From Verrucomicrobiota bacterium (GTDB lineage: Bacteria > Verrucomicrobiota > Verrucomicrobiia > Limisphaerales > JADLHS01), in NCBI GenBank assembly GCA_013140495.1, contig JABFSR010000080.1, positions 1,055-65,054 on the forward strand: a stretch of 64,000 nt of DNA. The letters are read 5' to 3'. Each line of letters begins with the position of its first letter. The first letter of the stretch is position 1. The position numbers and the translations under genes are program-made. This document shows positions 7,590 through 44,376 of the stretch, in pieces. Under the pieces are notes generated by a model. That model had not been told where the DNA came from. It saw only the letters and a list, made by a program, of their open reading frames with translations, and made no database searches.

Positions 7590-7761
7590 TGTAGCGTCGT
7601 GCATCCGTGCCTGACGTAGAGGGCGTGCATCCTTGCCGCCCGGAAGTGACGGAGGATTCTTTGAGGCTCAGGAAAGTTTCCAGCGCGTTGGGTTAACGTG
7701 GGCTCTTTCCGCCGGGCTGGGAAGCCCGGCTCTACGGCAGGCAGGGATGCCCGCCGCTACA
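7590..7761. repeat. REPIN/MITE-like element of inverted GTAG-REP doublets
   Basis: Arm 7590-7645 (TGTAGCGTCGTGCATCCGTGCCTGACGTAGAG...) is an imperfect inverted repeat of arm 7707-7761. Confidence 0.75.
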
Positions 7762-28753: not shown

Positions 28754-29039
28754 AATGATCGTCCGAATGATTGTGTGAGCAAAAACGTTTTGCCATACGC
28801 CATTCGCCGGGTACATTGTCCACGTCAGCCAAAAAAATCGCAGCGCTTAACGCGACGTGAGAATTCAGGCTGGTATTACCTTCCGTGCGGAAGGGGCGGG
28901 CATGGAGTTGAAAACGTGTGTCACTCCATGCCCGCTCGTTTTTTTGCCCCAGTGAGCTGTTTACGTCGTTTAGTTCAAGGCGAAGTGCGACAGTGGCGAG
29001 AGTTGCTCTGTTGAACTGACGGCGACGAACGAAACCGGC

Positions 29040-29068
29040 TTGCTAGCCTGCAACTCGATTGCTAACCT
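29040..29068 (+). promoter_or_regulatory. putative sigma70 promoter of the nuo operon
   Basis: TTGCTA-N17-TAACCT. Confidence 0.4.
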
Positions 29069-29099
29069 TCCGTTGCGTCGCAACCTGACGCCCGTTCCC

Positions 29100-29627
29100 A
29101 TGACTCAGACCACCGAATTCGGCTACGACCGGAACATTGAGGGCGATGTAATTCACACCAGAGTGGATGCTGCCCTGAACTGGTTTCGCAAAAACTCCAT
29201 CTGGCCGATGCCGATGGGTTTGGCGTGCTGCGCCATTGAATTGATGGCCACGGGCGCGAGCCGGTTTGATATTTCGCGATTCGGCATGGAAGTCATGCGT
29301 TTTTCGCCCCGGCAATCGGACTGCATGGTCGTTGCCGGCACGGTGACCTACAAAATGGCGCTGGCGGTGAAGCGCATTTACGACCAGATGGCCGAACCGA
29401 AATACGTCATCGCCATGGGCGCGTGCGCCTCGACGGGCGGCATGTATCGCAGCTATTCCGTGTTGCAGGGCGTGGATCAAATCATTCCGGTGGACGTTTA
29501 TGTGGCCGGTTGCCCGCCGCGACCTGAAGCCCTGCTTGACGCGCTGATGAAATTGCAAAACCAGATTTCACGCGAACCGACCGTCAGCAACTTGAAGAAA
29601 CTAACCCCGCTACCAGCCAAAGTTTAA
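29100..29627 (+). CDS. nuoB: NADH-quinone oxidoreductase subunit B
   Basis: [26 protein letters not shown]. Confidence 0.96.
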
Positions 29628-29636
29628 TTCCTCGAA

Positions 29637-30227
29637 GTGAACGCGACGGACTACGCCAACAAACTCCGGGAGAAATTCGGGGAACTCATCTCTGCGCCCG
29701 CAGAGTTTCGAGGCGAAATCACGCTGAACGTCGCGGATGCCGAGCGCATCGTCGAGGTTTGTGCTTTCGCCAAGAAAGAACTTGGCTTCGACTTTCTCGC
29801 GGATGTTTCCAGCATTGATAATTACGGGGAAGATCCTCGATGGACCATTGTTTACGAACTCTACGGTATCGGTAACGGAACTTACCTTCGCCTCAAAACA
29901 TCGGTTTCCGAGGAGAAATCAAAGCTCCCGACGGTCACGAGCGTCTGGCGGACGGCAGATTGGCACGAGCGCGAGATTTACGACATGATGGGCGTCCGCT
30001 TTCGCGGTCATCCTGATTTGCGCCGCATCATCATGTGGGAGGGCTATCCCTACTTTCCGTTGCGCAAAGATTTCCCGCTGGGTGGCAAACCGACCGATTT
30101 GCCGGACATCGCGTTTACCAAGACCGCGCCGATTGAAGGCGGGCCGTTCGTCACCGCACCGGGCGGCAAGGATGCAATTGAACGCGAGCCGCGCGTGCGA
30201 ATGGCGGAGGATAAATCAGGAAAATGA
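29637..30227 (+). CDS. nuoC: NADH-quinone oxidoreductase subunit C
   Basis: ADWHEREIYDMMG, HPDLRRI, PLRKDFP. Confidence 0.95.
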   Translation: MNATDYANKLREKFGELISAPAEFRGEITLNVADAERIVEVCAFAKKELGFDFLADVSSIDNYGEDPRWTIVYELYGIGNGTYLRLKTSVSEEKSKLPTVTSVWRTADWHEREIYDMMGVRFRGHPDLRRIIMWEGYPYFPLRKDFPLGGKPTDLPDIAFTKTAPIEGGPFVTAPGGKDAIEREPRVRMAEDKSGK

Positions 30228-30508
30228 AACTGCTTCTCCTCACCTTAATTGTGCTTGAAGTATGCTTGGTCATGATCGCTATTTCGCCAGTCTCACCCTT
30301 TGTTAGCCTTAAAAGCAGAGCACAAGCCTACGATGATTGGCAAAAACTTCCGACAACGGAGAATGAAGCCGCTTGGTTACGGGAAAAAGCGGCGTTCAAT
30401 CACAAGCAGCTTGTGGAGAACATCTGCGTTTACGGCTTGCTCGCGCTTAATGCTGTCGGGCTTATTTTTTTGTTCATGCGCGTGCAGAATCAAACGCCAA
30501 AAAGCTAA
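30224..30508 (+). CDS. hypothetical 2-TM membrane protein between nuoC and nuoD
   Basis: 94 aa, hydrophobic ends, ATGA and TAATG overlaps with both neighbours. Confidence 0.6.
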   Translation: MKLLLLTLIVLEVCLVMIAISPVSPFVSLKSRAQAYDDWQKLPTTENEAAWLREKAAFNHKQLVENICVYGLLALNAVGLIFLFMRVQNQTPKS

Positions 30509-31797
30509 TGCCCGAAGTACAAGAAATTGAGATTCGCGACTCTGCTGCCAAAGCGGCAGCGGTGGCGCGGTCTTTTCCGCCGGCTGAAGATTTGCAGGAC
30601 ATGCAGGGCGAAAAGATGGTCCTCAACATGGGGCCGTCGCATCCGTCCACGCATGGCGTGTTGCGCATCATTCTGGAACTGGATGGCGAGATCATCACCA
30701 AGGCGATTCCCGACATCGGCTATCTGCATCGCGGCGACGAAAAAATCGCCGAGAACATGACCTACACCCAGTTCATCCCTTACACGGATCGGCTGGATTA
30801 TCTCGCGCCGATGGCGAACAACGTCGCCTACGCGCTCGCGGTCGAAAAACTCCTCGGCATCCACGACAAACTTCCGCCGCGCTGCCAATACCTCCGCGTG
30901 ATTTGCGCTGAACTGGCGCGCATTTCGTCCCACCTGCTCGGCGTCGGCTGTTTCGCGATGGACGTGGGCGCGATGACGGTTTTCTTGCTCACGTTCACGG
31001 AGCGCGAAAAAATTTACAACCTCTGCGAATCCCTCACCGGCGCGCGGTTCACGACCAGTTACACACGCATCGGCGGCGTTTCGCGCGACACGCCGCCCGG
31101 TTGGTGCGACGCGGTGCGCAAGTTCCTCAACAAAGTCGTCGTCAACATCGCCGAGGTCGAGATGCTGCTCACCCGCAACCGCATCTGGGTGGATCGCACG
31201 CGCGACGTCGGCGTCATCTCGAAGGAGGAGGCCATTGATTTCGGCTTAAGCGGCCCGAACTTGCGCGGCAGCGGCGTGGATTACGATCTCCGCAAAGCGC
31301 AGCCGTATCTTTGCTACAAGGAACTGCAATTCGACGTGGTGCTCGGCTCGGTCGGCGATTGCTATGACCGCTACCTCGTGCGCATGGAGGAAATGCGCCA
31401 GAGCGTCCGCCTCGTTCATCAGTGCCTCGACAAAATTCCCGGCGGCTTCGAGAACAAATCGAAGGAGCCGGTCAACGTGGCCGATGGCAAAATTGTTTTG
31501 CCGCCGAAGAACAAGGTGATGTCGAGCATGGAGGAGTTGATTCATCAATTCATGCTCGTGACACAGGGCATGAACTGTCCGCCCGGCGAAATTTATTTCG
31601 GGCACGAAAATCCGAAGGGCGAACTCGGTTTTTACATCAACAGTCGGGGCGGCGGCACGCCGTATCGGATGAAGATTCGCAGCCCCTCGTTCGTGAACCT
31701 GAGCATTCTGTCGCATCTGTTGCCTGGCCACATGATGAGCGACACGGTTTCGATCCTGGGTTCGTTTGACTTTGTGATGGGAGAATGTGACCGATGA
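30508..31797 (+). CDS. nuoD: NADH-quinone oxidoreductase subunit D
   Basis: GPSHPSTHGVLR, GYLHRG, DRLDY, GECDR. Confidence 0.97.
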   Translation: MPEVQEIEIRDSAAKAAAVARSFPPAEDLQDMQGEKMVLNMGPSHPSTHGVLRIILELDGEIITKAIPDIGYLHRGDEKIAENMTYTQFIPYTDRLDYLAPMANNVAYALAVEKLLGIHDKLPPRCQYLRVICAELARISSHLLGVGCFAMDVGAMTVFLLTFTEREKIYNLCESLTGARFTTSYTRIGGVSRDTPPGWCDAVRKFLNKVVVNIAEVEMLLTRNRIWVDRTRDVGVISKEEAIDFGLSGPNLRGSGVDYDLRKAQPYLCYKELQFDVVLGSVGDCYDRYLVRMEEMRQSVRLVHQCLDKIPGGFENKSKEPVNVADGKIVLPPKNKVMSSMEELIHQFMLVTQGMNCPPGEIYFGHENPKGELGFYINSRGGGTPYRMKIRSPSFVNLSILSHLLPGHMMSDTVSILGSFDFVMGECDR

Positions 31798-32279
31798 GTT
31801 TCACCGTTCCAGCCAACTTAGAAGCCGAGATTGACGAGCTGATCACGCATTACCCTGTGAAGCGCAGTGCGTCGCTCATGTTGCTGCACGCGTTGCAGGA
31901 ACACTTCGGCCACATCTCACCGGAAGCCACGCAATGGGTCGCCAAGAAACTCGGCTTGCAACCGATCAACGTCCACGAACTCGTGACGTTTTATCCGATG
32001 TTCCGGCAAACCGCGCCGGGCAAACATCAGATCAAAGTTTGCCGCACGCTGAGTTGCGCGCTGGGCGGCTCGCACAAATTGCACGAACACTTTTGCACCA
32101 AGCTCGGCCTCGACCCGCACGCGCACGGTTTGCAAACGACAAAGGACGGAAAGTTCTCGGTTGAATTCGTCGAGTGTCTCGCTGGCTGCGGCATGGCGCC
32201 GGTCATGATGTGCAATGAAGATTTCCACGAAGGCGTGAGCAATGCGAAAGCCGACGAAATCATCGGAGGCTGCCGATGA
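31794..32279 (+). CDS. nuoE: NADH-quinone oxidoreductase subunit E
   Basis: CRTLSC and ECLAGC 2Fe-2S motifs. Confidence 0.95.
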   Translation: MSFTVPANLEAEIDELITHYPVKRSASLMLLHALQEHFGHISPEATQWVAKKLGLQPINVHELVTFYPMFRQTAPGKHQIKVCRTLSCALGGSHKLHEHFCTKLGLDPHAHGLQTTKDGKFSVEFVECLAGCGMAPVMMCNEDFHEGVSNAKADEIIGGCR

Positions 32280-32311
32280 AAGTCGTAAATCGTAAATCCG
32301 AAATCGCAAAT
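32280..32311 (+). repeat. heptamer tandem repeat
   Basis: AAGTCGT AAATCGT AAATCCG AAATCGC AAAT. Confidence 0.7.
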
Positions 32312-32317
32312 GGAGAG

Positions 32318-32391
32318 TGGTTGCCCGACATGGATTTGAACCATGACAAACAGATTCAGAGTCTGCTGTGCTACCGTTACACCATCGGGCA
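32318..32391 (-). tRNA. tRNA-Gln (anticodon CTG)
   Basis: Minus strand TGCCCGA acceptor stem, D-arm, GCAGA-CT-CTG-AA-TCTGT anticodon arm, GTTCAAAT T-loop, encoded CCA. Confidence 0.95.
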
Positions 32392-32407
32392 AACCGACGT
32401 GTGGCAT

Positions 32408-32435
32408 AGCCTAGATATTTCCCTTTCGGAGTCAA
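32408..32435 (-). promoter_or_regulatory. putative sigma70 promoter of tRNA-Gln
   Basis: Minus strand TTGACT-N16-TAGGCT, 16 nt upstream of the tRNA. Confidence 0.55.
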
Positions 32436-32444
32436 GAAACTGAT

Positions 32445-33869
32445 ATGCCGCAAGAGTTCAAACTCATCCTCAAGCATCTCGATAACCCGGGTTACACGCC
32501 CGACATCGAATGCTATTTGCGGCACGGCGGCTACGACGCGCTCAAGAAAGCGCTCGCCATCCAGCCCAAGGATTTGCCGGACGGCAAGAAAGCCTCGCCG
32601 CAGGAACAGATTCGCGATGACGTGAAACTCTCTGGTTTGCGCGGTCGCGGCGGTGCTGGTTTTTCGTGCGGACTCAAGTGGAGCTTCGTTGACCGTCGTA
32701 GCGGCAAGCCGATTTATCTCATCTGCAACGCCGACGAATCCGAGCCCGGCACGTTCAAGGATCGCCAGATCATCCACAAAGACCCGCATCAGCTCATCGA
32801 GGGCATGATCATCTCGTGCTTCGCGAACGACGTGAAGCTCGCCTACATTTACATTCGTGGCGAAATGCCCAAGGGCGCAAAACTCCTGAACGCGGCGTTG
32901 AAGGAAGCGCGCGCGAAAAATTTCCTCGGCAAAAATATTCTTGGCAGCGGTTACGATCTGGAGATTCACGTTCATCGCGGTGCGGGTGCTTACATCTGCG
33001 GGGAGGAAACCGGCCTCATCGAATCGCTCGAAGGCAAGCGGCCTTATCCGCGCATCAAGCCGCCGTATTTCCCAGCCGTGCTCGGGCTCTACATGTGCCC
33101 GACCATCGTCAACAACGTCGAGACGCTCTGCAACGTGAAGCACATCGTCACGATGGGCGGCGCGGAGTTCGCGAAGCTCGGCACACCGAACAACACCGGC
33201 ACGCGCATCGTGAGCTTGAGCGGCCAGGTGAAACGCCCCGGCTATTACGAAATTGAAGTCGGCAAAGCCACCATCGGTCAACTCATCAACGATCCCGCAT
33301 TCGGCGGCGGTTTGCTGGATGGACGAAAACTTAAAGCCGTCATCCCCGGTGGTTCGTCCTCGAAGGTTTTGAAGGCGGGCGAGAAGTTCAAACTCAAGCG
33401 TAAGGTCGAAGGCAAAGACGTCGAGGTGGAAACCGACATGCTCGATCTGCCGTATGATTTCGATTCGCTCCAGCAAGCCGGCACGATGAGCGGTTCGAGC
33501 GCGATCATCGTGATTGATGACAGCGTGGACATCGTCGGCGCGCTGGCGAATCTCTCCGAGTTTTACGCCCACGAAAGCTGCGGCCAATGCACGCCCTGCC
33601 GCGAAGGTTCGCTCTGGATGAGCAAGACGCTCCATCGCCTCACGCACGGCGAAGGCCGCAAGCAGGATGCGGAATATCTCGTGAAGATCGCCGACAACAT
33701 TCCCGGCGGTAAGACGATTTGCGCGTTCGGTGAAGCCTGCTCGTGGCCCGTGCAAAGTTTCGTCGCGAAGTTCAAAGATGAATTCGTCGCCAAAGGCGCA
33801 GCGGATGAAGAACGTCGCGCGAAGGAAGCCACGACTGGCAAAAAAGAATTGGCCGCTGCACCACACTGA
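32445..33869 (+). CDS. nuoF: NADH-quinone oxidoreductase subunit F
   Basis: GRGGAGF, NADESEPG, YICGEET, ESCGQCTPCREG. Confidence 0.97.
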   Translation: MPQEFKLILKHLDNPGYTPDIECYLRHGGYDALKKALAIQPKDLPDGKKASPQEQIRDDVKLSGLRGRGGAGFSCGLKWSFVDRRSGKPIYLICNADESEPGTFKDRQIIHKDPHQLIEGMIISCFANDVKLAYIYIRGEMPKGAKLLNAALKEARAKNFLGKNILGSGYDLEIHVHRGAGAYICGEETGLIESLEGKRPYPRIKPPYFPAVLGLYMCPTIVNNVETLCNVKHIVTMGGAEFAKLGTPNNTGTRIVSLSGQVKRPGYYEIEVGKATIGQLINDPAFGGGLLDGRKLKAVIPGGSSSKVLKAGEKFKLKRKVEGKDVEVETDMLDLPYDFDSLQQAGTMSGSSAIIVIDDSVDIVGALANLSEFYAHESCGQCTPCREGSLWMSKTLHRLTHGEGRKQDAEYLVKIADNIPGGKTICAFGEACSWPVQSFVAKFKDEFVAKGAADEERRAKEATTGKKELAAAPH

Positions 33870-33874
33870 TTTCG

Positions 33875-35560
33875 ATGTCCGCCGCACCTACAACTGAAGT
33901 TAAGCCCGCGCCGCCTGCGATCGAAAAGATCAAGGTCAAGGTGGACGGGCGCGAAGTCGAAGTGCCAAAGCTCACGCCGGATTGGCAGGGCAAGTTCGCG
34001 CCCACCACGATGCTGCAGGCGTGCGACATCGCGAAGAAGGACGTCCCGCATTATTGCTATCATCCGAAGCTGCCAGTCGCTGGTAATTGCCGCATGTGCC
34101 TCGTCGAGTTCGGCACGCCCGCACTCGGCCCGGATCGCAAGCCGGTGATGAATCCCGACGGCACGCCGAAGATCGCGAAATCGCCGCGTCCCGCCATCGG
34201 TTGCGCGACGCCGATTTCGCCGGGCATGGAAATTTACACGAGCACACCCGGCGTGAAGCAGATGCGCGAAGGCGTGCTCGAATCACTGCTCATCAATCAC
34301 CCGCTCGATTGTCCGATCTGCGACCAGGCCGGCGAATGCAAGCTCCAGGAATATTCCGTGGACTACGGCCAGAGCGCGAGTCGGTTCGTCGAGGCGAAGG
34401 TTCATAAGCCAAAGGCCGTTGATCTCGGACCGCGCATCATGCTGGACGCCGAGCGTTGCATTCTTTGCACGCGCTGCATCCGGTTCACCAAGGATGTCGC
34501 CGGCGACGACGCGCTCGGCATCGTGAATCGCGGCAGTTACAACACGATTGCCACGTTCCCCGGCCTCCCGTTCGACAACAACTACACGCTCAATACCGTG
34601 GACATCTGTCCCGTCGGTGCGTTGACGTCGAAGGATTTTCGTTTTCAGATGCGCGTGTGGTTTCTTAAGGAAACCAAGAGCGTCTGCACGAGTTGCGCGA
34701 CGGGCTGCAACGTCCTCATCAGCTCGCGCGAGGAAAAGATTTACCGCTACACGCCCCGCGACAACGACGCCGTCAACGGCCCATGGATGTGCGACGCCGG
34801 TCGCTTGAACTTCAAGTGGATTCATCGCGCGGACCGACTCAAGGATGTTTTGGTGCGCGGACAAAAATCCTCTTGGACCGCAGCGCTCTCGGAGATTGCT
34901 GACAAACTCAAGCAAGCTCCGGCAGGTTCGGTCGCCATTGTCGCCTCAGCTCGCCAGACAAACGAAGAGCTTTGGTTGATCAGCAAGCTCAAGACGAAGC
35001 TTGGCGCGCTTAGCGATTCCGTCGAACGCACTGGCGATGCCGACAAACTCCTCGTTAGTGCGGACAAGAATCCAAACACGAACGGCGCGCGGCTCACCGG
35101 CATTTGCTTCAGCGAGATGGGAATCAATTTGCCCAAGATCGCCGCCGGCATTGCGAAGGGCGCGATCAAGACTCTCATCGTCTTCGGGGAGGACGTCACG
35201 AAGCACGGCATCAGCACGGAATTGCTCGGCAAGCTGGACACGCTCATCGTCAGCGACATTTTGCCAAACGCCACGACCTCGGCGGCGCACTACGTTTTGC
35301 CCGGCTGCGCGCACGCGGAGAAGCGCGGTTCGTTTACGAACACGAAAGGCCGCGTGCAAAAGTTCCTGCAAGCCGTCCAGCCGCAGGGCGAGGCCCGCGC
35401 CGAATGGGATTTCCTGCACGACCTGGTTTACAACGTCACCGGCAAGAACGGTTTCCTGACCATCGAAGGATTGTTCAACGAGATGGCAAAGGATGTTCCC
35501 GCGTTCAACGGCCTCACGTGGGCTGGCCTTGGGGATACGGGCGTGACGGTGAAGATTTGA
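33875..35560 (+). CDS. nuoG: NADH-quinone oxidoreductase subunit G (short form)
   Basis: CYH..GNCRMC, HPLDCPICDQAGEC, CILCTRC, CTSCATGC. Confidence 0.93.
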   Translation: MSAAPTTEVKPAPPAIEKIKVKVDGREVEVPKLTPDWQGKFAPTTMLQACDIAKKDVPHYCYHPKLPVAGNCRMCLVEFGTPALGPDRKPVMNPDGTPKIAKSPRPAIGCATPISPGMEIYTSTPGVKQMREGVLESLLINHPLDCPICDQAGECKLQEYSVDYGQSASRFVEAKVHKPKAVDLGPRIMLDAERCILCTRCIRFTKDVAGDDALGIVNRGSYNTIATFPGLPFDNNYTLNTVDICPVGALTSKDFRFQMRVWFLKETKSVCTSCATGCNVLISSREEKIYRYTPRDNDAVNGPWMCDAGRLNFKWIHRADRLKDVLVRGQKSSWTAALSEIADKLKQAPAGSVAIVASARQTNEELWLISKLKTKLGALSDSVERTGDADKLLVSADKNPNTNGARLTGICFSEMGINLPKIAAGIAKGAIKTLIVFGEDVTKHGISTELLGKLDTLIVSDILPNATTSAAHYVLPGCAHAEKRGSFTNTKGRVQKFLQAVQPQGEARAEWDFLHDLVYNVTGKNGFLTIEGLFNEMAKDVPAFNGLTWAGLGDTGVTVKI

Positions 35561-35567
35561 TTTATTG

Positions 35568-35628
35568 GTAGCAGCCGACGTGAGTCGGCTCTGACTTGAA
35601 GAATGAGCGGACCGACGTCCGCTGCTAC
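35568..35628. repeat. REPIN-like inverted GTAG-REP doublet
   Basis: GTAGC-AGCCGAC-GTGA-GTCGGCT ... AGCGGAC-CGAC-GTCCGCT-GCTAC; flanked by direct repeat AAGATTTGA. Confidence 0.8.
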
Positions 35629-35645
35629 GAGATTAAAGATTTGAA

Positions 35646-36734
35646 ATGATCGAAAGCGTCAATAACTGGCTCGAAGGTTTGAGCCCTACGCAAAGCCTGC
35701 TGCTCTTCACGAGCATCAAGGCGGTCGCGTGCTTCGCCATCATGATGACCATGGTGGCTTACACGGTCGTGCTCGAACGTCGGCTGTGCGCGTGGATTCA
35801 AGACCGCATCGGACCGAACCGCGTCGGACCATTCGGTTTGTTGCAACCAGCTGCGGACGGCATCAAAGCCTTCTTCAAGGAAGAAATGACGCCCGCGCAT
35901 GTGCGCAAAGTTTTGTTCACACTGGCGCCGATGATCGCGCTCATCCCGGCGATTTTGAACCTTGCGGTCATTCCGTTCGGCTCAAATCTCGGCGGGCAGA
36001 AGATGGTGCTCGCCGATCTCAACGTCGGCATCCTCTACACGTTCGGCATCGTGTCGCTGGGCGTTTACAGCATCGTCCTGGCGGGCTACGCGAGTAATTC
36101 CAAGTTTCCCTTCCTCGGCGGCATCCGTTCGACCGCGCAGATGATTTCCTACGAAATCGCGATGGGCATGAGCGTCATCCCGATCTTCCTCTACGTCGGC
36201 AGCCTGAACCTGAGCGATGTCATCACCGCGCAGACCGGCACGCAACTCGGCTTCCTGCCGAATTGGTTCGTGTTCCAAACGCCGATGACGTTCCTCGCGT
36301 TCTGTATCTTCCTCGTCGCGTCGTTCGCGGAAACGAATCGCACACCGTTCGATTTGCCGGAAGCCGAGCAGGAACTCGCGGGCGGTTACAACATCGAATA
36401 CAGCTCCATCAAGTTCGCGATGTTCTTCATGGGCGAATACGCGGCCATGATTCTGGTGTCGGCCATCATGGTGACGCTGTTCTTCGGCGGTTGGACGTTG
36501 CCGTGGTTCGGCCTGGATCAAGCGGCGACCACGCTGCTCGGCGGCTTGCTGCACATTGGCATTTTCCTCGGGAAGGTTTTCCTATTCCTCGTGTTGTTCG
36601 TGTGGATTCGCTGGATGTGGCCTCGTTTCCGTTACGATCAACTCATGGACTTGGGCTGGCGGCGGTTCATTCCCGTCGCGCTGGCAAACATTTTGATCAC
36701 CGCCATCTGGCTCTGGTGGCAAAGCGGCAAATAA
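35646..36734 (+). CDS. nuoH: NADH-quinone oxidoreductase subunit H
   Basis: QDRIGPNRVG, ETNRTPFDLPEAE, PRFRYDQLM. Confidence 0.97.
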   Translation: MIESVNNWLEGLSPTQSLLLFTSIKAVACFAIMMTMVAYTVVLERRLCAWIQDRIGPNRVGPFGLLQPAADGIKAFFKEEMTPAHVRKVLFTLAPMIALIPAILNLAVIPFGSNLGGQKMVLADLNVGILYTFGIVSLGVYSIVLAGYASNSKFPFLGGIRSTAQMISYEIAMGMSVIPIFLYVGSLNLSDVITAQTGTQLGFLPNWFVFQTPMTFLAFCIFLVASFAETNRTPFDLPEAEQELAGGYNIEYSSIKFAMFFMGEYAAMILVSAIMVTLFFGGWTLPWFGLDQAATTLLGGLLHIGIFLGKVFLFLVLFVWIRWMWPRFRYDQLMDLGWRRFIPVALANILITAIWLWWQSGK

Positions 36735-36735
36735 C

Positions 36736-37278
36736 ATGATCGTCAAACGCAAACCATTGAATCTGTTCGAGCGGCTTTACCTGCCGGCCATCATCGGCGG
36801 GTTCAAAGTCACGCTGCGCCACCTCTTCAAGAAGAAGGTGACGATGCAGTATCCCGAAGAGAAATGGGTCGTACCCGAGGGTTATCGTGGCGCGCCGTAT
36901 CTCGTGAAGGATCAGGAAGGTAGCACCAAATGCGTCAGTTGTCAGCTTTGCGAATTCGTCTGTCCACCAAAAGCCATCAAGATCACACCGCCCGGTCCGG
37001 CGGGACAACTCGCGGATCGTGCGAACGCGGAGAAGATGCCAAAGGAATTCGAGATCAACATGCTTCGCTGCATCTTCTGCGGCTTTTGCCAGGAAGTCTG
37101 CCCCGAGGAAGCGATCTTCCTGCAAAAGGATTACTCGCTCACCGGCACGAGCCGCGCGGAAATGGTTTACAACAAGGAAAAACTCCTTGCGCTCGGCGGC
37201 ACGCACGCTGGCGTCCAGAAATGGAAGCACAAAGCGGAAGAGGCGAAGGCGCAGGAAAATTTCCCGGTGAAGGTGTGA
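36736..37278 (+). CDS. nuoI: NADH-quinone oxidoreductase subunit I
   Basis: Two CxxCxxCxxxCP motifs. Confidence 0.96.
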   Translation: MIVKRKPLNLFERLYLPAIIGGFKVTLRHLFKKKVTMQYPEEKWVVPEGYRGAPYLVKDQEGSTKCVSCQLCEFVCPPKAIKITPPGPAGQLADRANAEKMPKEFEINMLRCIFCGFCQEVCPEEAIFLQKDYSLTGTSRAEMVYNKEKLLALGGTHAGVQKWKHKAEEAKAQENFPVKV

Positions 37279-37283
37279 TGATG

Positions 37284-37411
37284 AAGCTCCAAGCACCAAC
37301 ATCCAACATCCAGAGAAGCACTAAACCTCAAGCTCCAATCGGAGTTCGCGGCGGCTTTGATGTTTGGTCATTGGATGTTCTCTGGAGCTTGGAGCTTGGA
37401 GCTTGGAATTT
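37284..37411. repeat. gene-less palindrome of heptamer units
   Basis: Left arm AAGCTCC AAGCACC AACATCC AACATCC AGAGAA...; right arm ...TTCTCT GGAGCTT GGAGCTT GGAGCTT GGAATTT. Confidence 0.85.
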
Positions 37412-37417
37412 TTAGAG

Positions 37418-37924
37418 ATGGCAACCGATATTCTATTTTACGTCTTGGCGGCGCTGACGCTGATCTTCGGCGCGCTCGTCGTCGCGAATCCTTTCAGCCG
37501 TAACCCGGTCACGAGCGCGATGTTCCTCGTGCTGACAATCATCTCGATGGCGGGGTTGTTTGTGTTGCTGCATGCGTTCTTCCTCGCGGCGGTGCAGGTG
37601 CTGGTTTACGCGGGCGCGGTCATGGTGCTGTTTTTATTCGTCATCATGCTGCTCGACTTGAAGGAAGAAGAACGGCGCAAGATCAAGCTGATGGGGTTGG
37701 TGGCGGGTTTGATTTCCGTCGGCGCAATCGTCGCCATCTTCGTCCGCTCGCTACTGGCGACAAATCCCGGCAAAGACTTGGCTGAGCCCAAAGCCGTCGG
37801 CGACACCGCCACGCTCGGCAAGATGCTCTTCACGAATTACCTGTTGCCGTTTGAAATCGTTTCCATCCTGCTCCTCGTGGCGATGGTGGGAGTGATTTTA
37901 TTGAGCAAGAAAGACCTGAAGTAG
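37418..37924 (+). CDS. nuoJ: NADH-quinone oxidoreductase subunit J
   Basis: QVLVYAGAVMVLFLFVIMLL, PFEIVS. Confidence 0.95.
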   Translation: MATDILFYVLAALTLIFGALVVANPFSRNPVTSAMFLVLTIISMAGLFVLLHAFFLAAVQVLVYAGAVMVLFLFVIMLLDLKEEERRKIKLMGLVAGLISVGAIVAIFVRSLLATNPGKDLAEPKAVGDTATLGKMLFTNYLLPFEIVSILLLVAMVGVILLSKKDLK

Positions 37925-38427
37925 CCGCAAAAGAACGCAAAGAACACATAGAAAGGAGAATCAAAAATGCAAACCAAGACCATCAACGACTTGTGCGACA
38001 TCGTAAGGCAGACGGCTTATGACATTCACGTTTATCACGCGAATGGACACTTGGAGAAAGTCTATGAGAATGCCTTGGCGAATCGGCTTCGAAAAGCTGG
38101 ATTCGACGTGAAGCAACAGCATCCACTCAAGGTGCAAGACGAAGATGGAACGATCATTGGCGAATACTTCGCTGATCTGTTGATTGATGGTCGCCTTATT
38201 GTTGAGTTGAAAGCCGCCAAGTCAGTCGCCGATGAACACGTCGCGCAAACGCTCGGCTATTTGAAAGCGTCTCGGATTGAGCACGGCTTGCTCATCAATT
38301 TCGGCTCGTATCGGTTTGAGATTCGCAAGTTTGTATTGAGCCAAGGCAAGGCGAGTGAGGAAGGATTGGGCCGTTTGGCTTGCCTCATGCCTTTTCTCTT
38401 TGCGATCTATGCGTTCTTTCGCGGCTA
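37922..38427. mobile_element. putative element: GxxExxY gene between inverted repeats of 9-bp units
   Basis: 37922-37948 matches the reverse complement of 38401-38427 at 23 of 27 positions. Confidence 0.65.
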
Positions 38428-38428
38428 A
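37967..38428 (+). CDS. GxxExxY protein (PD-(D/E)XK nuclease fold)
   Basis: GHLEKVY, ADLLID...VELKA, LLINFG; SD AAAGGAG. Confidence 0.9.
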   Translation: MQTKTINDLCDIVRQTAYDIHVYHANGHLEKVYENALANRLRKAGFDVKQQHPLKVQDEDGTIIGEYFADLLIDGRLIVELKAAKSVADEHVAQTLGYLKASRIEHGLLINFGSYRFEIRKFVLSQGKASEEGLGRLACLMPFLFAIYAFFRG

Positions 38429-38434
38429 AAAGTA

Positions 38435-38740
38435 ATGAATGTAGGACTCGAACATTATCTGATCGTCAGCGCGTTGTTATTCGCGCTCGGTTTGCTGGGC
38501 GTTATCACGCGGCGCAACCTCATCGTGATCTACATGTCGCTGGAGTTGATGCTCAACTCGGCGAACCTCGCGCTCGTTTCCTTTTCGCGGTTCAACGACA
38601 ATCTCAACGGCCAGGTGATGGTGTTTTTCATCATCACCGTGGCGGCGGCGGAAGTCGCCGTCGGCCTCGCGCTCATCGTGGCGCTCTATCGCAAGCGCCA
38701 GTCCGCGCATGTGGAGGACCTGACCTCGATGAAATACTGA
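38435..38740 (+). CDS. nuoK: NADH-quinone oxidoreductase subunit K
   Basis: SLELMLNSANL, VAAAEVAVGLA. Confidence 0.96.
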   Translation: MNVGLEHYLIVSALLFALGLLGVITRRNLIVIYMSLELMLNSANLALVSFSRFNDNLNGQVMVFFIITVAAAEVAVGLALIVALYRKRQSAHVEDLTSMKY

Positions 38741-38743
38741 CGG

Positions 38744-40609
<1,866 letters not shown>

Positions 40610-40620
40610 CATGAGAATTC

Positions 40621-41260
40621 AACGCAAAGGCGCAAAGACGCAAAGACGCAAAGAGGGAAGGATTTTCCTTCCCGTTGCGTGTTGGCGTGTTGGCGTGCTG
40701 GCGTTTAAGAAAGGTGGTCTGGCATGACCGAAAACGAGATTGCCAAGATTATCGTGGACGCCGCGATTGAAGTGCATCGCGAACTCGGTGGGCCGGGCTT
40801 GCTTGAGGATGTTTATGAAGAAGCCTTGGCGGAAGAATTGCGACTACGCGGCTTGAAAGTGGAGCGCCAGCTTCCAGTGCGGATTACCTATAAAGGTCGC
40901 GTGTTGAGCAAACCACTCCGTCTGGACATGAAGGTCGAGGGCTTGGTCTTGGTGGACAACAAAGCTGTGACCGAGTGGAATCCGATTTTTGAGGCACAGA
41001 TGCAAACTTACTTGCGTCTCACCGGTCTCAAGTTGGGTTTGGTAATCAATTTCGGCGAAAGACTCGTGAAGCACGGGATTCATCGGGTAGTGAATGGTCT
41101 GCCGGAAGACTTGGATTTTAAGCCGCAGCCGAAGCGCAAAGACAAGACGGACAACAATTGAAATTCGTGGCAATGAATAAACGCAATGACACAAAGGCGC
41201 AAAGAGGCGGAGAAAGGAAATGTTTTCCTTTGCGTCTTTGCGTCTTTGCGCCTTTGCGTT
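40621..41260. mobile_element. putative element: GxxExxY gene between two hairpins of 8-bp units, with a perfect 33-bp terminal inverted repeat
   Basis: 40621-40653 AACGCAAAGGCGCAAAGACGCAAAGACGCAAAG is the exact reverse complement of 41228-41260. Confidence 0.7.
40724..41161 (+). CDS. GxxExxY protein (PD-(D/E)XK nuclease fold)
   Basis: GPGLLEDVY, RLDMKV...VDNKA, GLVINFG. Confidence 0.9.
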   Translation: MTENEIAKIIVDAAIEVHRELGGPGLLEDVYEEALAEELRLRGLKVERQLPVRITYKGRVLSKPLRLDMKVEGLVLVDNKAVTEWNPIFEAQMQTYLRLTGLKLGLVINFGERLVKHGIHRVVNGLPEDLDFKPQPKRKDKTDNN

Positions 41261-41267
41261 AAAAAAG

Positions 41268-42815
41268 ATGACGACCCTGACCTACATTTTCCTGTTGCCA
41301 TTGCTCGCCGCAATCGCGCTGGCGTTTGTGCCGCGTAACTTTGCCGTCATCATGCGCGCCGTGGCGGTGGGCGTGACTTTCGTCACCATGCTGCTCGGCA
41401 TCCTGATGTTCTGGCAGTTCAACGGCGCAACGGCCGACGCTAATGGCTACAAGTTCGTCAGCACAATTCCGTGGCTGGGCGCGGAATCGCTCGGCATCGC
41501 CTGCAAGTTCGGCGTGGATGGCCTGAACGTCGGGCTGGTCTTGATGGGCGCAATTGTCGCGTTTGCGGCGGCGTGCTGCTCGTTCGAGATCAAGACGCGC
41601 GAGAAGGAGTTTTATATCCTGCTGCTCGTAATGACCGGCGGTATTCTCGGCGCGTTCATGTCCACGGACCTGTTCTTCTTCTACTTCTTCCATGAACTCG
41701 CGCTCGTACCGACGTTCATCATGATCGGCGTGTGGGGTCGCGGCGAGCGGAAGAACTTTGCGACGTTCCAGATCACGATCTACCTGAGCATCGGCGCATT
41801 GCTGGCGCTCATCGGCCTCATCGCGCTTTATCTGCAACTGCCCACCGATGTCCGCACGTTCGACATCCCAACGCTGACGAAGTATTTCGCCGAACACACG
41901 ATGGCCGCGAGCGCGCAGAACTTCATCTTCCCGCTGCTGCTGTTCGGATTCGGAATTCTCGTGTCGCTCTGGCCGTTCCATTCGTGGGCGGCATTGGGCT
42001 ACGGTTCTGCGCCGAGCGCGACGGCGATGTTGCACGCGGGCGTGCTGAAGAAGTTCGGGCTTTACGGTCTGATCCGCGTGGCGCTGCCGTTCATGCCGCA
42101 GGCGGCGCAAAGTTGGATGCAAATCCTCGCGTGGCTCTGCCTCGGCAACGTGCTTTACGTCGGCTGGGTGGCAATGCGGCAGAAGAATCTCAATCTGCTC
42201 ATCGGCAACTCCAGCGTGGCGCACATGGGCATGATCTTCCTTGGCATCGCGAGCTTGAACCTCATCGGCGTGACCGGCGCGGTGGTCATCATGATCGCGC
42301 ACGGCTTCCTCGCGGCGCTGACGTTTGGCTTGAGCGGCTACATCTACAATCAGACCGGCACGCTGGAAATGAGCGAACTTGGCGGGCTTGCGAAGAAGCT
42401 GCGGTTCATCGGCGTGGCGTTCGTGATGGCCGCGATGGCGGGCTGCGGCCTGCCGGGCTTCCTGAATTTCGTCGGCGAGGTCACCGTGTTTTTTGGGGCG
42501 TGGCAAGTACCTGCTTTGCGTTTGGTGACGGTGCTGGCGGTCTGGGGGGCGTTGATCATCGGGGCGGTTTACATGCTGCGCGCAGTGCGGGCAGTGATGC
42601 ATGGGCCGGCGCAGGAGGATAAGACTTATGCGACGAATGTGACGGATGCGAATCTGTGGCGAAAGCTGCCTTACGCGATCTTGATCGCGAGCTTGCTGGT
42701 GTTTGGGTTTTTCCCGCGCTTCTTGACCGACAAGATCAAGCCGGTGACGGAACAGATTGTGAATATGGCGACGACCGGAGTTGCGAAAACCATCGTGGCG
42801 CAATCGAAGCCGTGA
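41268..42815 (+). CDS. nuoM: NADH-quinone oxidoreductase subunit M
   Basis: FHELALVP, PFHSW, LKKFGLYG, SSVAHMG, GLPG. Confidence 0.95.
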   Translation: MTTLTYIFLLPLLAAIALAFVPRNFAVIMRAVAVGVTFVTMLLGILMFWQFNGATADANGYKFVSTIPWLGAESLGIACKFGVDGLNVGLVLMGAIVAFAAACCSFEIKTREKEFYILLLVMTGGILGAFMSTDLFFFYFFHELALVPTFIMIGVWGRGERKNFATFQITIYLSIGALLALIGLIALYLQLPTDVRTFDIPTLTKYFAEHTMAASAQNFIFPLLLFGFGILVSLWPFHSWAALGYGSAPSATAMLHAGVLKKFGLYGLIRVALPFMPQAAQSWMQILAWLCLGNVLYVGWVAMRQKNLNLLIGNSSVAHMGMIFLGIASLNLIGVTGAVVIMIAHGFLAALTFGLSGYIYNQTGTLEMSELGGLAKKLRFIGVAFVMAAMAGCGLPGFLNFVGEVTVFFGAWQVPALRLVTVLAVWGALIIGAVYMLRAVRAVMHGPAQEDKTYATNVTDANLWRKLPYAILIASLLVFGFFPRFLTDKIKPVTEQIVNMATTGVAKTIVAQSKP

Positions 42816-42879
42816 ACCGGGCAGCTTTGATGTTGTGACTGCTCTTGCTGTCGTCCCGGCCTTCCTGAACTCGCGATCC

Positions 42880-44238
42880 TCAACTCGGAGACAAAGACTC
42901 CGCCACGTTGATGCCTGAGACGATTGAATCGCTCAGCGAGATTCCATTGCGAAAATGGCCTGCCAGATGGAATCCCGGCGCTTTCGATTCAATGTCATTC
43001 ATCAAATTCTTGAAGCGTCCAAAGCCGACGTTGTACTGCGGAATGGCACGGGGATAAAACACGCAATGCTGAAAAGTCGGTTTTCCGCGAACTCCCAGGA
43101 GCAAGCGCAAATCTTCGCAGGTCAGTTCGAACAATTTGTCATGCGGCAGAGATGCCAGTTCGGGATAACGCTCACCGCCAACATAACTTGTGAGTGTGAT
43201 ATGTCCGACGGGCGCGCGGTTGGGAAATAATGACGACGAGAAAATGCAGCCAAGAATTTTGAAACCCTCGATTTTCGGGATCAACATGCCGAATCCTGAA
43301 CACGGATGTGCCACGTCTTCGCGTTTGAAGCCAAGGACCACGCTGGCCACTGGGGGATGACGGATTTCGGAGAGTGGCGAGAGGTCGAGGGTTTGAGAGC
43401 CTGTCTCGATTTTCAATTCCGCGAGCTTGTGGGCGGTGCCGCAATAGATCACCGCATCGTGGTCCGACTCTCCTGAGGAGGTTGTGATCCGCCATCCGTT
43501 TGTTGTCCGCGAGAGTTTTGTAACCGTCGTGTTCAATTTCATCGCTTCGCCGAGTCGTTCGCGCAGTGTGTCCGGCAACACCTGCAAGCCTTCGTCGAAC
43601 GAGAGCTTGGGCGCGCGGTCTTTTGCCACTTCCCCACGCTTCTTGCGTTCGCGTCCGCCAAATATCTGGCCTTTGATCATTGAACCGTAATTGTCCTCGA
43701 GCGCCTTGAGTTTGGGGAATGCGTGTGCGACGGAAATTTTTTGCGGGTCGCCCGCGTAAATGCCCGCGACCAGCGCATCAATTGCATGATCAAGGAATTC
43801 CTGATTGAACCGCCGTGTCACGAACTGCCCGATGCTTTCCTCGACACCATCCCGACGTGGTTTTACAAACGGTTCGCGCAATACGGCGCACTTGGCCTTC
43901 CATGAAAACAGATCGGTTGTCAGAAACCCCAGCGGCGAGCCGGGCATTTCTATGGGGCGCTTGTAACGAACCACGTAGCGAGCTTCAGATTTTGGGTCAG
44001 GATCCATCCGGCGCGATTCGAGTCCGGCATCGCGGATGAGTTGTGCAATTTTCGGCGAGGTTTCGAGAATGGTGTTTGGCCCGAACTCGGCGAGATATCC
44101 ATCGCGCCGCAAAGATTGAATGACACCACCTACGCGCCCGCTTGCTTCATAAACCGTCACCGCGAATCCACGGCGTTTCAAATAAAACGCAGCGGTCAGA
44201 CCCGTGATACCAGCACCGATGATTGCAACGGATTTCAT
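42880..44238 (-). CDS. hemG: protoporphyrinogen/coproporphyrinogen oxidase (HemY type)
   Basis: GAGITGL FAD motif, EFGPN, GIYAGD, AIPQY. Confidence 0.9.
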   Translation of the reverse strand: MKSVAIIGAGITGLTAAFYLKRRGFAVTVYEASGRVGGVIQSLRRDGYLAEFGPNTILETSPKIAQLIRDAGLESRRMDPDPKSEARYVVRYKRPIEMPGSPLGFLTTDLFSWKAKCAVLREPFVKPRRDGVEESIGQFVTRRFNQEFLDHAIDALVAGIYAGDPQKISVAHAFPKLKALEDNYGSMIKGQIFGGRERKKRGEVAKDRAPKLSFDEGLQVLPDTLRERLGEAMKLNTTVTKLSRTTNGWRITTSSGESDHDAVIYCGTAHKLAELKIETGSQTLDLSPLSEIRHPPVASVVLGFKREDVAHPCSGFGMLIPKIEGFKILGCIFSSSLFPNRAPVGHITLTSYVGGERYPELASLPHDKLFELTCEDLRLLLGVRGKPTFQHCVFYPRAIPQYNVGFGRFKNLMNDIESKAPGFHLAGHFRNGISLSDSIVSGINVAESLSPS

Positions 44239-44376
44239 CACGCCCAAATTGAGTTACCCGCATGACAGCCGCAAGCATTTCCGGATTGCGATGTGCCAAA
44301 TGCTGTTTGTTTTGGAATAATTCCTTGGCTCGACGTGTTATTGCGTGTAGGAAGAGCGCGGCCTTTCCAATCACAA

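Follow-up and report, generated by a model that had tools for sequence, protein, structure and literature searches.

In T4-like phages, free-standing homing endonuclease genes lie between conserved co-transcribed genes, vary among close relatives and leave no target duplication, and in Paracoccus and Rhodobacter the nqo/nuo clusters carry unidentified reading frames between their structural genes, few in number and stable. [quoted passage not shown] Repetitive extragenic palindromic (REP) sequences and REPIN elements are described together with REP-associated tyrosine transposases (RAYTs; PMC3116915, PMC3337134, PMC3733652), a conserved GTAG head serving as a criterion for a REP (PMC3733652). 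Here we analysed the nuo (complex I) operon in a 64,000-nucleotide stretch of a Verrucomicrobiota genome (hereafter the window; G000:C39:1055-65054, G000 being the genome under study), the gene junctions of which are opened by extra DNA, and compared it with the orthologous operons of 20 relatives, 17 from the same genus and 3 from other families, in which the nuo genes were placed by tblastn.

Content, turnover and bridging of the nuo junctions

The cluster is open at six junctions, C/D, E/F, G/H, I/J, J/K and L/M (280, 165, 85, 139, 510 and 658 nt, respectively), and tight at B/C, D/E, F/G, H/I and K/L (9, -4, 5, 1 and 3 nt), which agrees with the insert sites given in the initial annotation of this DNA. 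That annotation took the inserts to be palindromic elements, a description that fits G/H and I/J only, since C/D holds an ORF, E/F an antisense tRNA-Gln gene, and J/K and L/M protein-coding genes with inverted-repeat arms. The six open junctions hold several unrelated kinds of extra DNA.

Repeated opening of these junctions, as first proposed from the window, was borne out across the genus: in the 18 same-genus genomes, 105 of 146 scorable nuo junctions were at least 60 nt long. Two genomes (G014 and G037) had almost all of their junctions tight, and each junction was tight in some genome, save E/F, which always contained the tRNA gene. Among 136 insert ORFs, Pfam matches were confined to those in sense, 38 of 115 having one (in one case to a NuoG fragment), as against none of the 21 in antisense. 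The matches comprised PDDEXK_3, Y1_Tnp, N6_N4_Mtase/DNA methylases, HigB, ParE with Unstab_antitox, DUF4258 with DUF2283, DUF4160 with DUF2442, NYN, YhcG, AbiEii and SMR. At H/I, five relatives (G016, G007, G020, G012 and G004) carried a 150-aa Y1_Tnp gene flanked by inverted REP-like hairpins (GCACCCGGCTTCAGCCGGGTG, AAACCGTTTCAACGGTTT), which passed the IS200 model (62.3 bits, cut-off 55) and not the RAYT model (24.4, cut-off 80). The last bases of this cassette, GAGATTTGAA/ATGATC, come close to the native G/H junction, and translations of its hairpins (LSLAPGFSQV, EKPFQRF, KPLKRF, TRLKPGANE) recur within other junction inserts.

At G/H, the content differed within a single tight clade, delimited by a tree of NuoG+H+I (G000, G002, G010, G009 and G011), with the GTAGCAGC palindrome in G000 and G010, one of GGTAGGG type in G009, an ORF of 909 bp in G002 and an insert of 403 bp in G011. 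A fifth state, an empty junction, was found in G015, the nearest relative by NuoH, which was added to the clade on the basis of its NuoH identity.

Many inserts are, in addition, threaded by ORFs. An insert was scored as bridged when a chain of ORFs, each starting -4 to +12 nt from the preceding stop, ran as far as the start of the following nuo gene. By this definition 80 of the 117 inserts of at least 60 nt in 21 genomes were bridged, as compared with 14.7 in mononucleotide shuffles and 19 when the inserts were reverse-complemented; for inserts of 60-200 nt the corresponding figures were 35 of 54, 12.0 and 12. Weighting by sequence clusters, which lessens the repetition of orthologues, gave 49.1 of 76 bridged versus 9.0 expected (22.5 of 36 versus 7.6 for the short clusters). 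The start codons of these relay ORFs fell repeatedly on the upstream stop, in the forms ATGA, TGATG or TGA-n-ATG. Elsewhere in G000, judging by crude gene calls, co-directional gaps of 40-400 nt were bridged at the expected rate, both with a palindrome (29 of 101, 26.8 expected) and without one (316 of 1059, 298.8 expected). The excess in nuo, taken with these null controls, indicates that bridging belongs to the operon in this lineage and not to the elements or the genome, and such confinement fits a survival filter. The earlier idea that inserts survive at coupling junctions was supported within nuo, where stop/start coupling was kept far more often than by chance; elsewhere in the genome no such excess was seen.

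Our preferred reading, to which we assign a probability of roughly 0.65, is that the nuo junctions are parking places for selfish DNA of several kinds that turns over fast and is filtered for the preservation of translational coupling. At one and the same junction, sister genomes carry genes for nucleases, RAYT-like Y1 transposases, toxin-antitoxin pairs or methylases, or plain hairpins; such content would be gained, lost and replaced quickly within the genus, and the inserts that survive would be those co-oriented with nuo and usually threaded by one or more ORFs from the upstream stop to the downstream start. We infer that ribosomes would pass along these frames through the insert, opening its hairpins en route. 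If the relay ORFs are translated, they would provide a simple rule by which repeats and selfish genes can lie inside an essential coupled operon without breaking it, and would account for conserved operons that look 'opened' in some lineages.

Several observations weigh against this reading. Thirty-seven of the 117 inserts were unbridged, including the J/K cassette of the window, which has its own AAAGGAGAA ahead of the ATG and a 42-nt gap before it. At least 5 of the 117 were not inserts at all but start-call artefacts in broken loci (G017 B/C and C/D; G019 J/K and K/L; G012 F/G), all of them scored unbridged, and orthologous inserts are not independent, a dependence that the cluster weighting addresses. 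The G/H chain taken alone was not significant (null 0.56). The divergence of insert DNA was about as slow as that of the nuo genes, and the L/M nuclease showed 92-96% identity across genomes; this is as compatible with domestication to a useful role as with selfishness. Finally, around PF13366 genes in 79 loci of other phyla (see below), where start calls are rough, bridging did not exceed chance: it was seen upstream in 3 of 43 gaps (7.8 expected) and downstream in 9 of 37 (9.9 expected).

Table 1. Features of the nuo cluster and its open junctions, in window coordinates
Feature	Position	Strand	Basis and remarks
nuoB-C-D-E-F-G-H-I-J-K-L-M cluster	29100..42815	+	Pfam match for every gene, ORF list
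nuoB	29100..29627	+	Pfam, ORF list
nuoC	29637..30227	+	Pfam, ORF list
94-aa hydrophobic ORF at C/D	30224..30508	+	no family in Pfam/profile searches
nuoD	30508..31797	+	Pfam, ORF list
nuoE	31794..32279	+	Pfam, ORF list
E/F relay ORF, 55 codons	32276..32443	+	ATGA with nuoE stop; TGA-t-ATG end at nuoF; crosses antisense tRNA
tRNA-Gln(CTG) gene, antisense, between nuoE and nuoF	32318..32391	-	ARAGORN; Rfam tRNA 66 bits (threshold 29)
nuoF	32445..33869	+	Pfam, ORF list
nuoG	33875..35560	+	Pfam, ORF list
Left copy of 9-bp direct repeat AAGATTTGA	35552..35560	+	last codons and stop of nuoG
G/H palindrome, REPIN-like, two inverted GTAG-headed REP units (GTAGCAGCCGAC...GCTGCTAC)	35568..35628		fold -36.3 kcal/mol, z -5.5
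Right copy of AAGATTTGA	35636..35644	+	followed by A-ATG of nuoH; closes 13-codon mini-ORF 35603-35644 (frame AAG-ATT-TGA)
nuoH	35646..36734	+	Pfam, ORF list
nuoI	36736..37278	+	Pfam, ORF list
I/J relay ORF (45-46 codons) through I/J palindrome (arms 37288-37407)	37278..37415	+	TGATG on nuoI stop; TAG-ag-ATG end at nuoJ
nuoJ	37418..37924	+	Pfam, ORF list
J/K cassette	37925..38434	+	GxxExxY/PDDEXK_3 gene 37967-38428; PF13366 E 8.9e-30; TIGR04256
nuoK	38435..38740	+	Pfam, ORF list
nuoL	38744..40609	+	Pfam, ORF list
L/M cassette	40610..41267	+	GxxExxY gene 40724-41161; PF13366 E 1.5e-35
L/M left relay ORF, 38 codons, through left hairpin	40611..40727	+	TGA-c-ATG from nuoL; ATGA into nuclease gene
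L/M right relay ORF, 34 codons, through right hairpin	41158..41262	+	overlaps nuclease gene; TAA-aaaag-ATG at nuoM
nuoM	41268..42815	+	Pfam, ORF list

The GxxExxY nuclease cassettes

The GxxExxY genes at J/K and L/M scored 103.9 and 122.5 bits against PF13366 (cut-off 22) and 112.3 and 128.3 bits against TIGR04256 (cut-off 35), and both are framed by inverted arrays of CGCAAAGN-like 8-mers. The arms of the J/K cassette are imperfect (~37925-37955 and 38396-38425); its gene ends with a TAA 6 nt before the nuoK ATG, and orthologous cassettes were found in G011, G004 and G020. The outer arms of the L/M cassette (40621-40653 and 41228-41260) are inverted repeats of each other, perfect over 33 bp, and its two hairpins have predicted folds of -47.2 and -48.2 kcal/mol. 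Contig joints across L/M were considered as possible traces of excision and rejected, for their sides were only 23-25 nt long, with other letters between, and the joints represent other copies of the hairpin.

The operon harbours three types of GxxExxY protein in all, 28-43% identical to each other. In the F/G-type gene, carried by relatives, the arms form part of the coding frame (MKRRDAETQS...SASPRLCG, for example), and the F/G insert of G023 is an internal-deletion derivative of the F/G cassette of G016 that kept both arms and an open 75-codon frame. A dispersed repeat of ~190 bp with the same type of arms (CGCGGAGACGCAGAG-type, inverted) occurs in at least 8 copies at unrelated loci of G000. 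A reading of the 79-bp J/K hairpins of G010, G005 and G012 as arm-only remnants of the J/K cassette was dropped, the alignment being uninformative. Copies of the ~190-bp repeat lie at G000:C47:2916-3104 and on C157, C26, C229, C76, C249, C7 and C191. The loop of this repeat (ATCACCGAACAGTGTGTTG) is similar to the 5' end of the F/G-type GxxExxY gene, as it should be in a gene-less derivative. Next to the C47 copy lies a separate short repeat (55-90 nt; G000:C47:2826-2916), which gave more than 50 BLAST matches genome-wide, one of them in the window at ~7672-7760.

G000 contains four PF13366 matches in all, two of them inside the nuo operon, and of the 76 matches in 24 genomes of the genus (counted as matches, not as copy numbers), 11 fell within this ~15-kb operon. 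Further matches lie beside a second-type nuoH (G015:C56:3009-3353) and, in a different family, ~2.3 kb downstream of nuoH (G039:C82:17651-17986). We then turned to 79 PF13366 loci from other phyla, 42 of which had a cross inverted repeat scoring at least 14 around the gene, as compared with 2 in the best of 20 shuffles. GCAAAG-type 8-mer arrays were present on the left of 47 loci, as complementary arrays on the right of 35 and on both sides of 29, with same-locus controls giving 0, 2 and 0, respectively. In the first 50 of these loci the neighbours were ordinary operon genes, including DUF58 and BatA (five loci), purC and purE (two loci), two ABC ATPases, and GDP-mannose dehydratase and epimerase. 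The five DUF58/BatA loci (L051, L070, L072, L075 and L081) come from one Verrucomicrobiota and four Chloroflexota-type metagenome-assembled genomes and encode proteins 55-82% identical to that of the L/M gene. In a gammaproteobacterial Acidiferrobacteraceae metagenome-assembled genome (L095, 1-4740), a PF13366 gene lies between nuoM and nuoN, constituting an independent case.

These observations bear on the possibility that the GxxExxY genes are free-standing, homing-type endonucleases that cut empty operon junctions, are copied in by repair and spread from one related genome to another by way of the conserved nuo sequences on either side, with hairpins and mini-ORFs as secondary features. G25, E28, Y31, D68 and K80 are invariant in 25 GxxExxY sequences, E28, D68 and K80 being residues of catalytic type, and the modelled protein (pLDDT 87.7, a predicted-confidence score) adopts a compact generic PD-(D/E)XK fold. 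Foldseek returned generic PD-(D/E)XK folds only, the best being Cas4 SSO0001 (E 8e-4, TM 0.49), PADLOC gave nothing useful as to function, and sequence search yielded no relative of solved structure. Nuclease genes are present or absent at identical junctions among relatives, without target duplication; the operon is strongly enriched in them; and the same protein type occupies the same junction in different phyla. Some non-nuclease inserts are, moreover, more alike than their flanks, namely the I/J inserts of G002 and G011 (98.3% identical, flanks ~90%) and of G020 and G013 (99.1%, downstream 86.5%), which points to some exchange through conserved flanks. However, most shared inserts have diverged about as much as their flanks (73-93% identity), and most nuclease cassettes likewise diverge in step with them (78-88%), as under vertical descent; paralogues in one operon are merely 28-43% identical; and the protein is more strongly conserved than is usual for homing genes, its cleavage activity being only predicted. 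We consider homing unlikely as the explanation of the whole, though it remains the best placed of the alternatives to a filtered population of mixed selfish DNA.

Somewhat less probable still is that the inserts have been domesticated, the hairpins acting as RNA processing or stability elements that set Nuo stoichiometry and the nuclease having a host function. The hairpins of the window are indeed very stable (z -3.6 to -6.9) and, judging by position, co-transcribed. The I/J palindrome (-54.8 kcal/mol, z -3.6) has a likewise bridged counterpart in a different family (G028) that is 89.6% identical to it, as compared with 69% at the third codon positions of nuoI. The L/M-type protein is 96% (G007) and 92% (G013) identical to that of the window, with insert DNA at ~81%, and metagenomes contain more than 100 clusters at 86% identity or above, all named only 'GxxExxY protein'. 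Yet junctions other than E/F are also empty in relatives that look healthy, and G014 has almost all of them tight; sister genomes carry unrelated content at one and the same junction, toxin-antitoxin and methylase genes included; and the same repeat families are dispersed through the genome in every intergenic context.

More tentatively than the parking-place reading itself, we propose that GxxExxY/PDDEXK_3 genes with inverted GCAAAG-type 8-mer arrays, together with gene-less hairpin derivatives, may form an undescribed cross-phylum class of selfish cassettes that lodges between co-transcribed genes (nuo, DUF58-BatA, purC-purE, opp). In this genus such cassettes, along with unrelated palindromes, would be made 'translationally transparent' by relay ORFs, so that an essential coupled operon could tolerate and retain them.

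Flank repeats and the remaining junctions

The initial annotation had further proposed that palindromic elements target stop/start junctions and leave a target-site duplication each time, such that removal of the element and one repeat copy restores the junction. The four repeats on which this rested are all present in the sequence, AAGATTTGA at G/H, GATG (37277-80, 37417-20) at I/J, AAGTA (37919-23, 38430-34) at J/K and ATGAC (40606-10, 41268-72) at L/M, and we compared the four restored junctions with the empty alleles of relatives. Only the G/H reconstruction, TGA-A-ATG, was matched, by the sequence AAGATT-TGA-A-ATG in G015 (97% NuoH identity) and G014, where this junction is empty. At I/J, where TGATG had been predicted, empty alleles read TAG-gacagaa-ATG, TAG-gacagca-ATG or TAG-aacagca-ATG (G017, G009 and G014, respectively), and in agreement with them a near relative's contig, found in sequencing run X2, connects 37274 and 37418 through CTAGCACAGCA. 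At J/K, the predicted TAATG was contradicted by empty alleles in which the genes overlap as ATGA and NuoK has another N-terminus (G017, G014 and G037), and at L/M the predicted ATGA by TGA-tttag-ATG, TGA-tttcg-ATG, TGA-tttg-ATG or TAA-cttag-ATG (G017, G014, G005 and G012).

G000 has 335 palindromic elements of 18 or more paired bases, and we examined every one of them, using permuted flanks as the null. Apart from G/H, the lengths of their flank repeats matched this null, with no genome-wide excess; the AAGATTTGA repeat was the longest of all (9 nt: 1 observed, 0.2 expected). Among permuted 22-nt flank pairs, 69% share a string of at least 4 nt and 25% one of at least 5 nt. The 4-5-nt strings recur at I/J, J/K and L/M because an insert has a stop/start junction at either edge, in keeping with the caveat originally attached to these repeats, that some matching bases are forced by keeping both stop and start codons. 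Short duplications at stop/start junctions should accordingly be annotated with caution, as they are mostly forced. Nor were palindromes enriched between co-directional genes of G000, their density being 0.34/kb in co-directional, 0.35/kb in convergent and 0.25/kb in divergent gaps.

The 9-bp repeat at G/H is thus a true duplication, and the only real one of the four. Allowing up to 5 mismatches to the 23-nt unit, the REP family of its palindrome comprises 30 units in G000, most of them with the GTAG head and many as doublets, and its remaining copies have no evident flank repeats. Most occupied G/H alleles of relatives end, by eye, in a degenerate AAGATTTGAA ahead of the ATG (agagatttgaa in G012, gaagatttgta in G009, gaaaatttgaa in G002), which favours one old duplication, the DNA between its copies having been replaced since. 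We conclude that the G/H duplication is probably old and that the DNA between its two copies has been turning over. Sequencing-run contigs matched to the window, all of them from DNA, showed no G/H polymorphism; two runs labelled as RNA contained a fraction of 0.05-0.06 of the words sampled.

Insertion with target duplication as a general mode is, in light of the above, improbable. It fits G/H exactly, where the 9-bp repeat surrounds the palindrome, two relatives have the expected empty allele and degenerate right-hand copies are widespread, but it was refuted at three of the four junctions and it leaves the repeat-free copies of the same REP family and the null result for the 335 palindromes unexplained. 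Sister genomes, furthermore, hold different palindrome families between the same two 9-mers, which one old duplication explains better than repeated identical insertions.

The least probable account, that the inserts are neutral spacer DNA whose frames stay open for being G+C-rich, stop-poor repeats, can point to 8-mer arrays such as CGCAAAGA and its complement, which lack a stop codon in any frame, and to expected bridging that reaches 0.4-0.56 in the shortest inserts, but it is disfavoured by the composition-matched shuffles and reverse complements (80 of 117 observed versus 14.7 and 19), the absence of an excess in palindrome-bearing co-directional gaps elsewhere in G000, and the repeated placement of starts on the upstream stop.

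The two remaining open junctions are C/D and E/F. At C/D, the ATG of the hydrophobic ORF overlaps the nuoC stop (ATGA) and its TAA the nuoD ATG (TAATG), and the content of this junction is unrelated in other genomes (SMR in G005, HigB with DMP19 in G007, NYN in G020). One contig of sequencing run X1 has 17 other letters between 30209 and 30514, which suggests a relative without the C/D ORF.

At E/F, the antisense tRNA-Gln gene occupies the same place in 14 of 14 relatives covering this junction, including 3 from other families of the order, and is therefore old and not a recent insert, showing that an antisense tRNA gene can stay stably inside nuo. It was the only element above threshold in an Rfam scan, in which three sub-threshold microRNA-like hairpin matches were attributable to chance. 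The stretch 32280-32316 is an extra run of TCGTAAA-like heptamers, absent from the short E/F forms of relatives. Between the tRNA gene and nuoF, 32392-32444 is conserved too and looks like a putative tRNA promoter (TTGACT...TAGGCT on the minus strand). A second tRNA-Gln(CTG) gene of G000 lies on C76. In G007, G021, G019 and G028, a conserved ORF of ~194-199 aa without a Pfam family begins 10 nt past the nuoE stop, upstream of the tRNA gene. A 656-aa ORF antisense to nuoE and nuoF (31917-33887, minus strand) is longer than nuoF and would be picked up by length-based ORF calling; the codon-usage gene caller did not call it, and it looks spurious.

As for the surroundings of the cluster (28775-29100 and 42816-44293), nuoA and nuoN are not adjacent to it, the sole Oxidored_q4 (nuoA) match lying on another contig (G000:C246:12527-12835), and downstream of nuoM lie an amine oxidase gene, convergent with it, and a major facilitator superfamily gene. 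G000 also has a second, distant nuo operon on C259, with a NuoH 43% identical.

Comparison with known systems

Like a REPIN, the G/H element is an inverted, GTAG-headed doublet that forms a single long hairpin and belongs to an intergenic family with many dispersed copies, and the Y1_Tnp/IS200-like gene at H/I in relatives is flanked by inverted REP-like hairpins. Unlike the other copies of its family, the G/H copy is flanked by a 9-bp duplication, and it is threaded by mini-ORFs. A cognate RAYT for this family was not identified, the flanks of the six Y1_Tnp matches of G000 not having been compared with it. Among the matches listed for the REPIN and RAYT literature, none paired these elements with 'translational coupling'.

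The nuo inserts resemble MITEs in that they include short palindromic repeats in transcribed DNA that carry ORFs inside an operon. A fixed-length direct repeat at each copy, as characterizes MITEs, was seen at the G/H copy only. The ORFs of the nuo inserts, moreover, are separate stop-to-start relay frames and neither in-frame fusions nor mere passengers, and at 11 junctions of one operon they are common to whole genes and to several families that are unrelated to one another. With the reading frames in the Paracoccus and Rhodobacter clusters, this locus has in common a complex I operon interrupted by extra ORFs of unknown function, but here the inserts differ between species of one genus and are largely recognisable selfish gene types and palindromes.

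The nuo nuclease genes are, like the homing genes of T4-type phages, small, wedged between conserved genes, present in some relatives and absent from others, and without target duplication. They differ from them in having a bacterial chromosome as host, in belonging to PF13366, in their inverted 8-mer-array arms and in that their cleavage is predicted only. Integron gene cassettes were considered too, as these genes are small, promoterless and accompanied by palindromes; here, the arms consist of 8-mer arrays and the genes are located within an operon.

Both nuclease genes of the window are clear members of the PF13366/TIGR04256 family, the function of which is listed as 'Unknown' in a survey of PD-(D/E)XK proteins (PMC3424549), and neither the inverted 8-mer arms nor the habit of lying at operon junctions is mentioned in the part of its family descriptions available to us. 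In the portions of the literature that we could access on GxxExxY, PDDEXK_3, PF13366 and four arm strings, we found nothing on inverted 8-mer arms or an operon-junction context, and did not find the cross-phylum, GCAAAG-type inverted arms of PF13366 genes described in print. The present comparison gives this widespread nuclease family a concrete, testable context, consisting of its arms, its operon junctions and its deletion derivatives.

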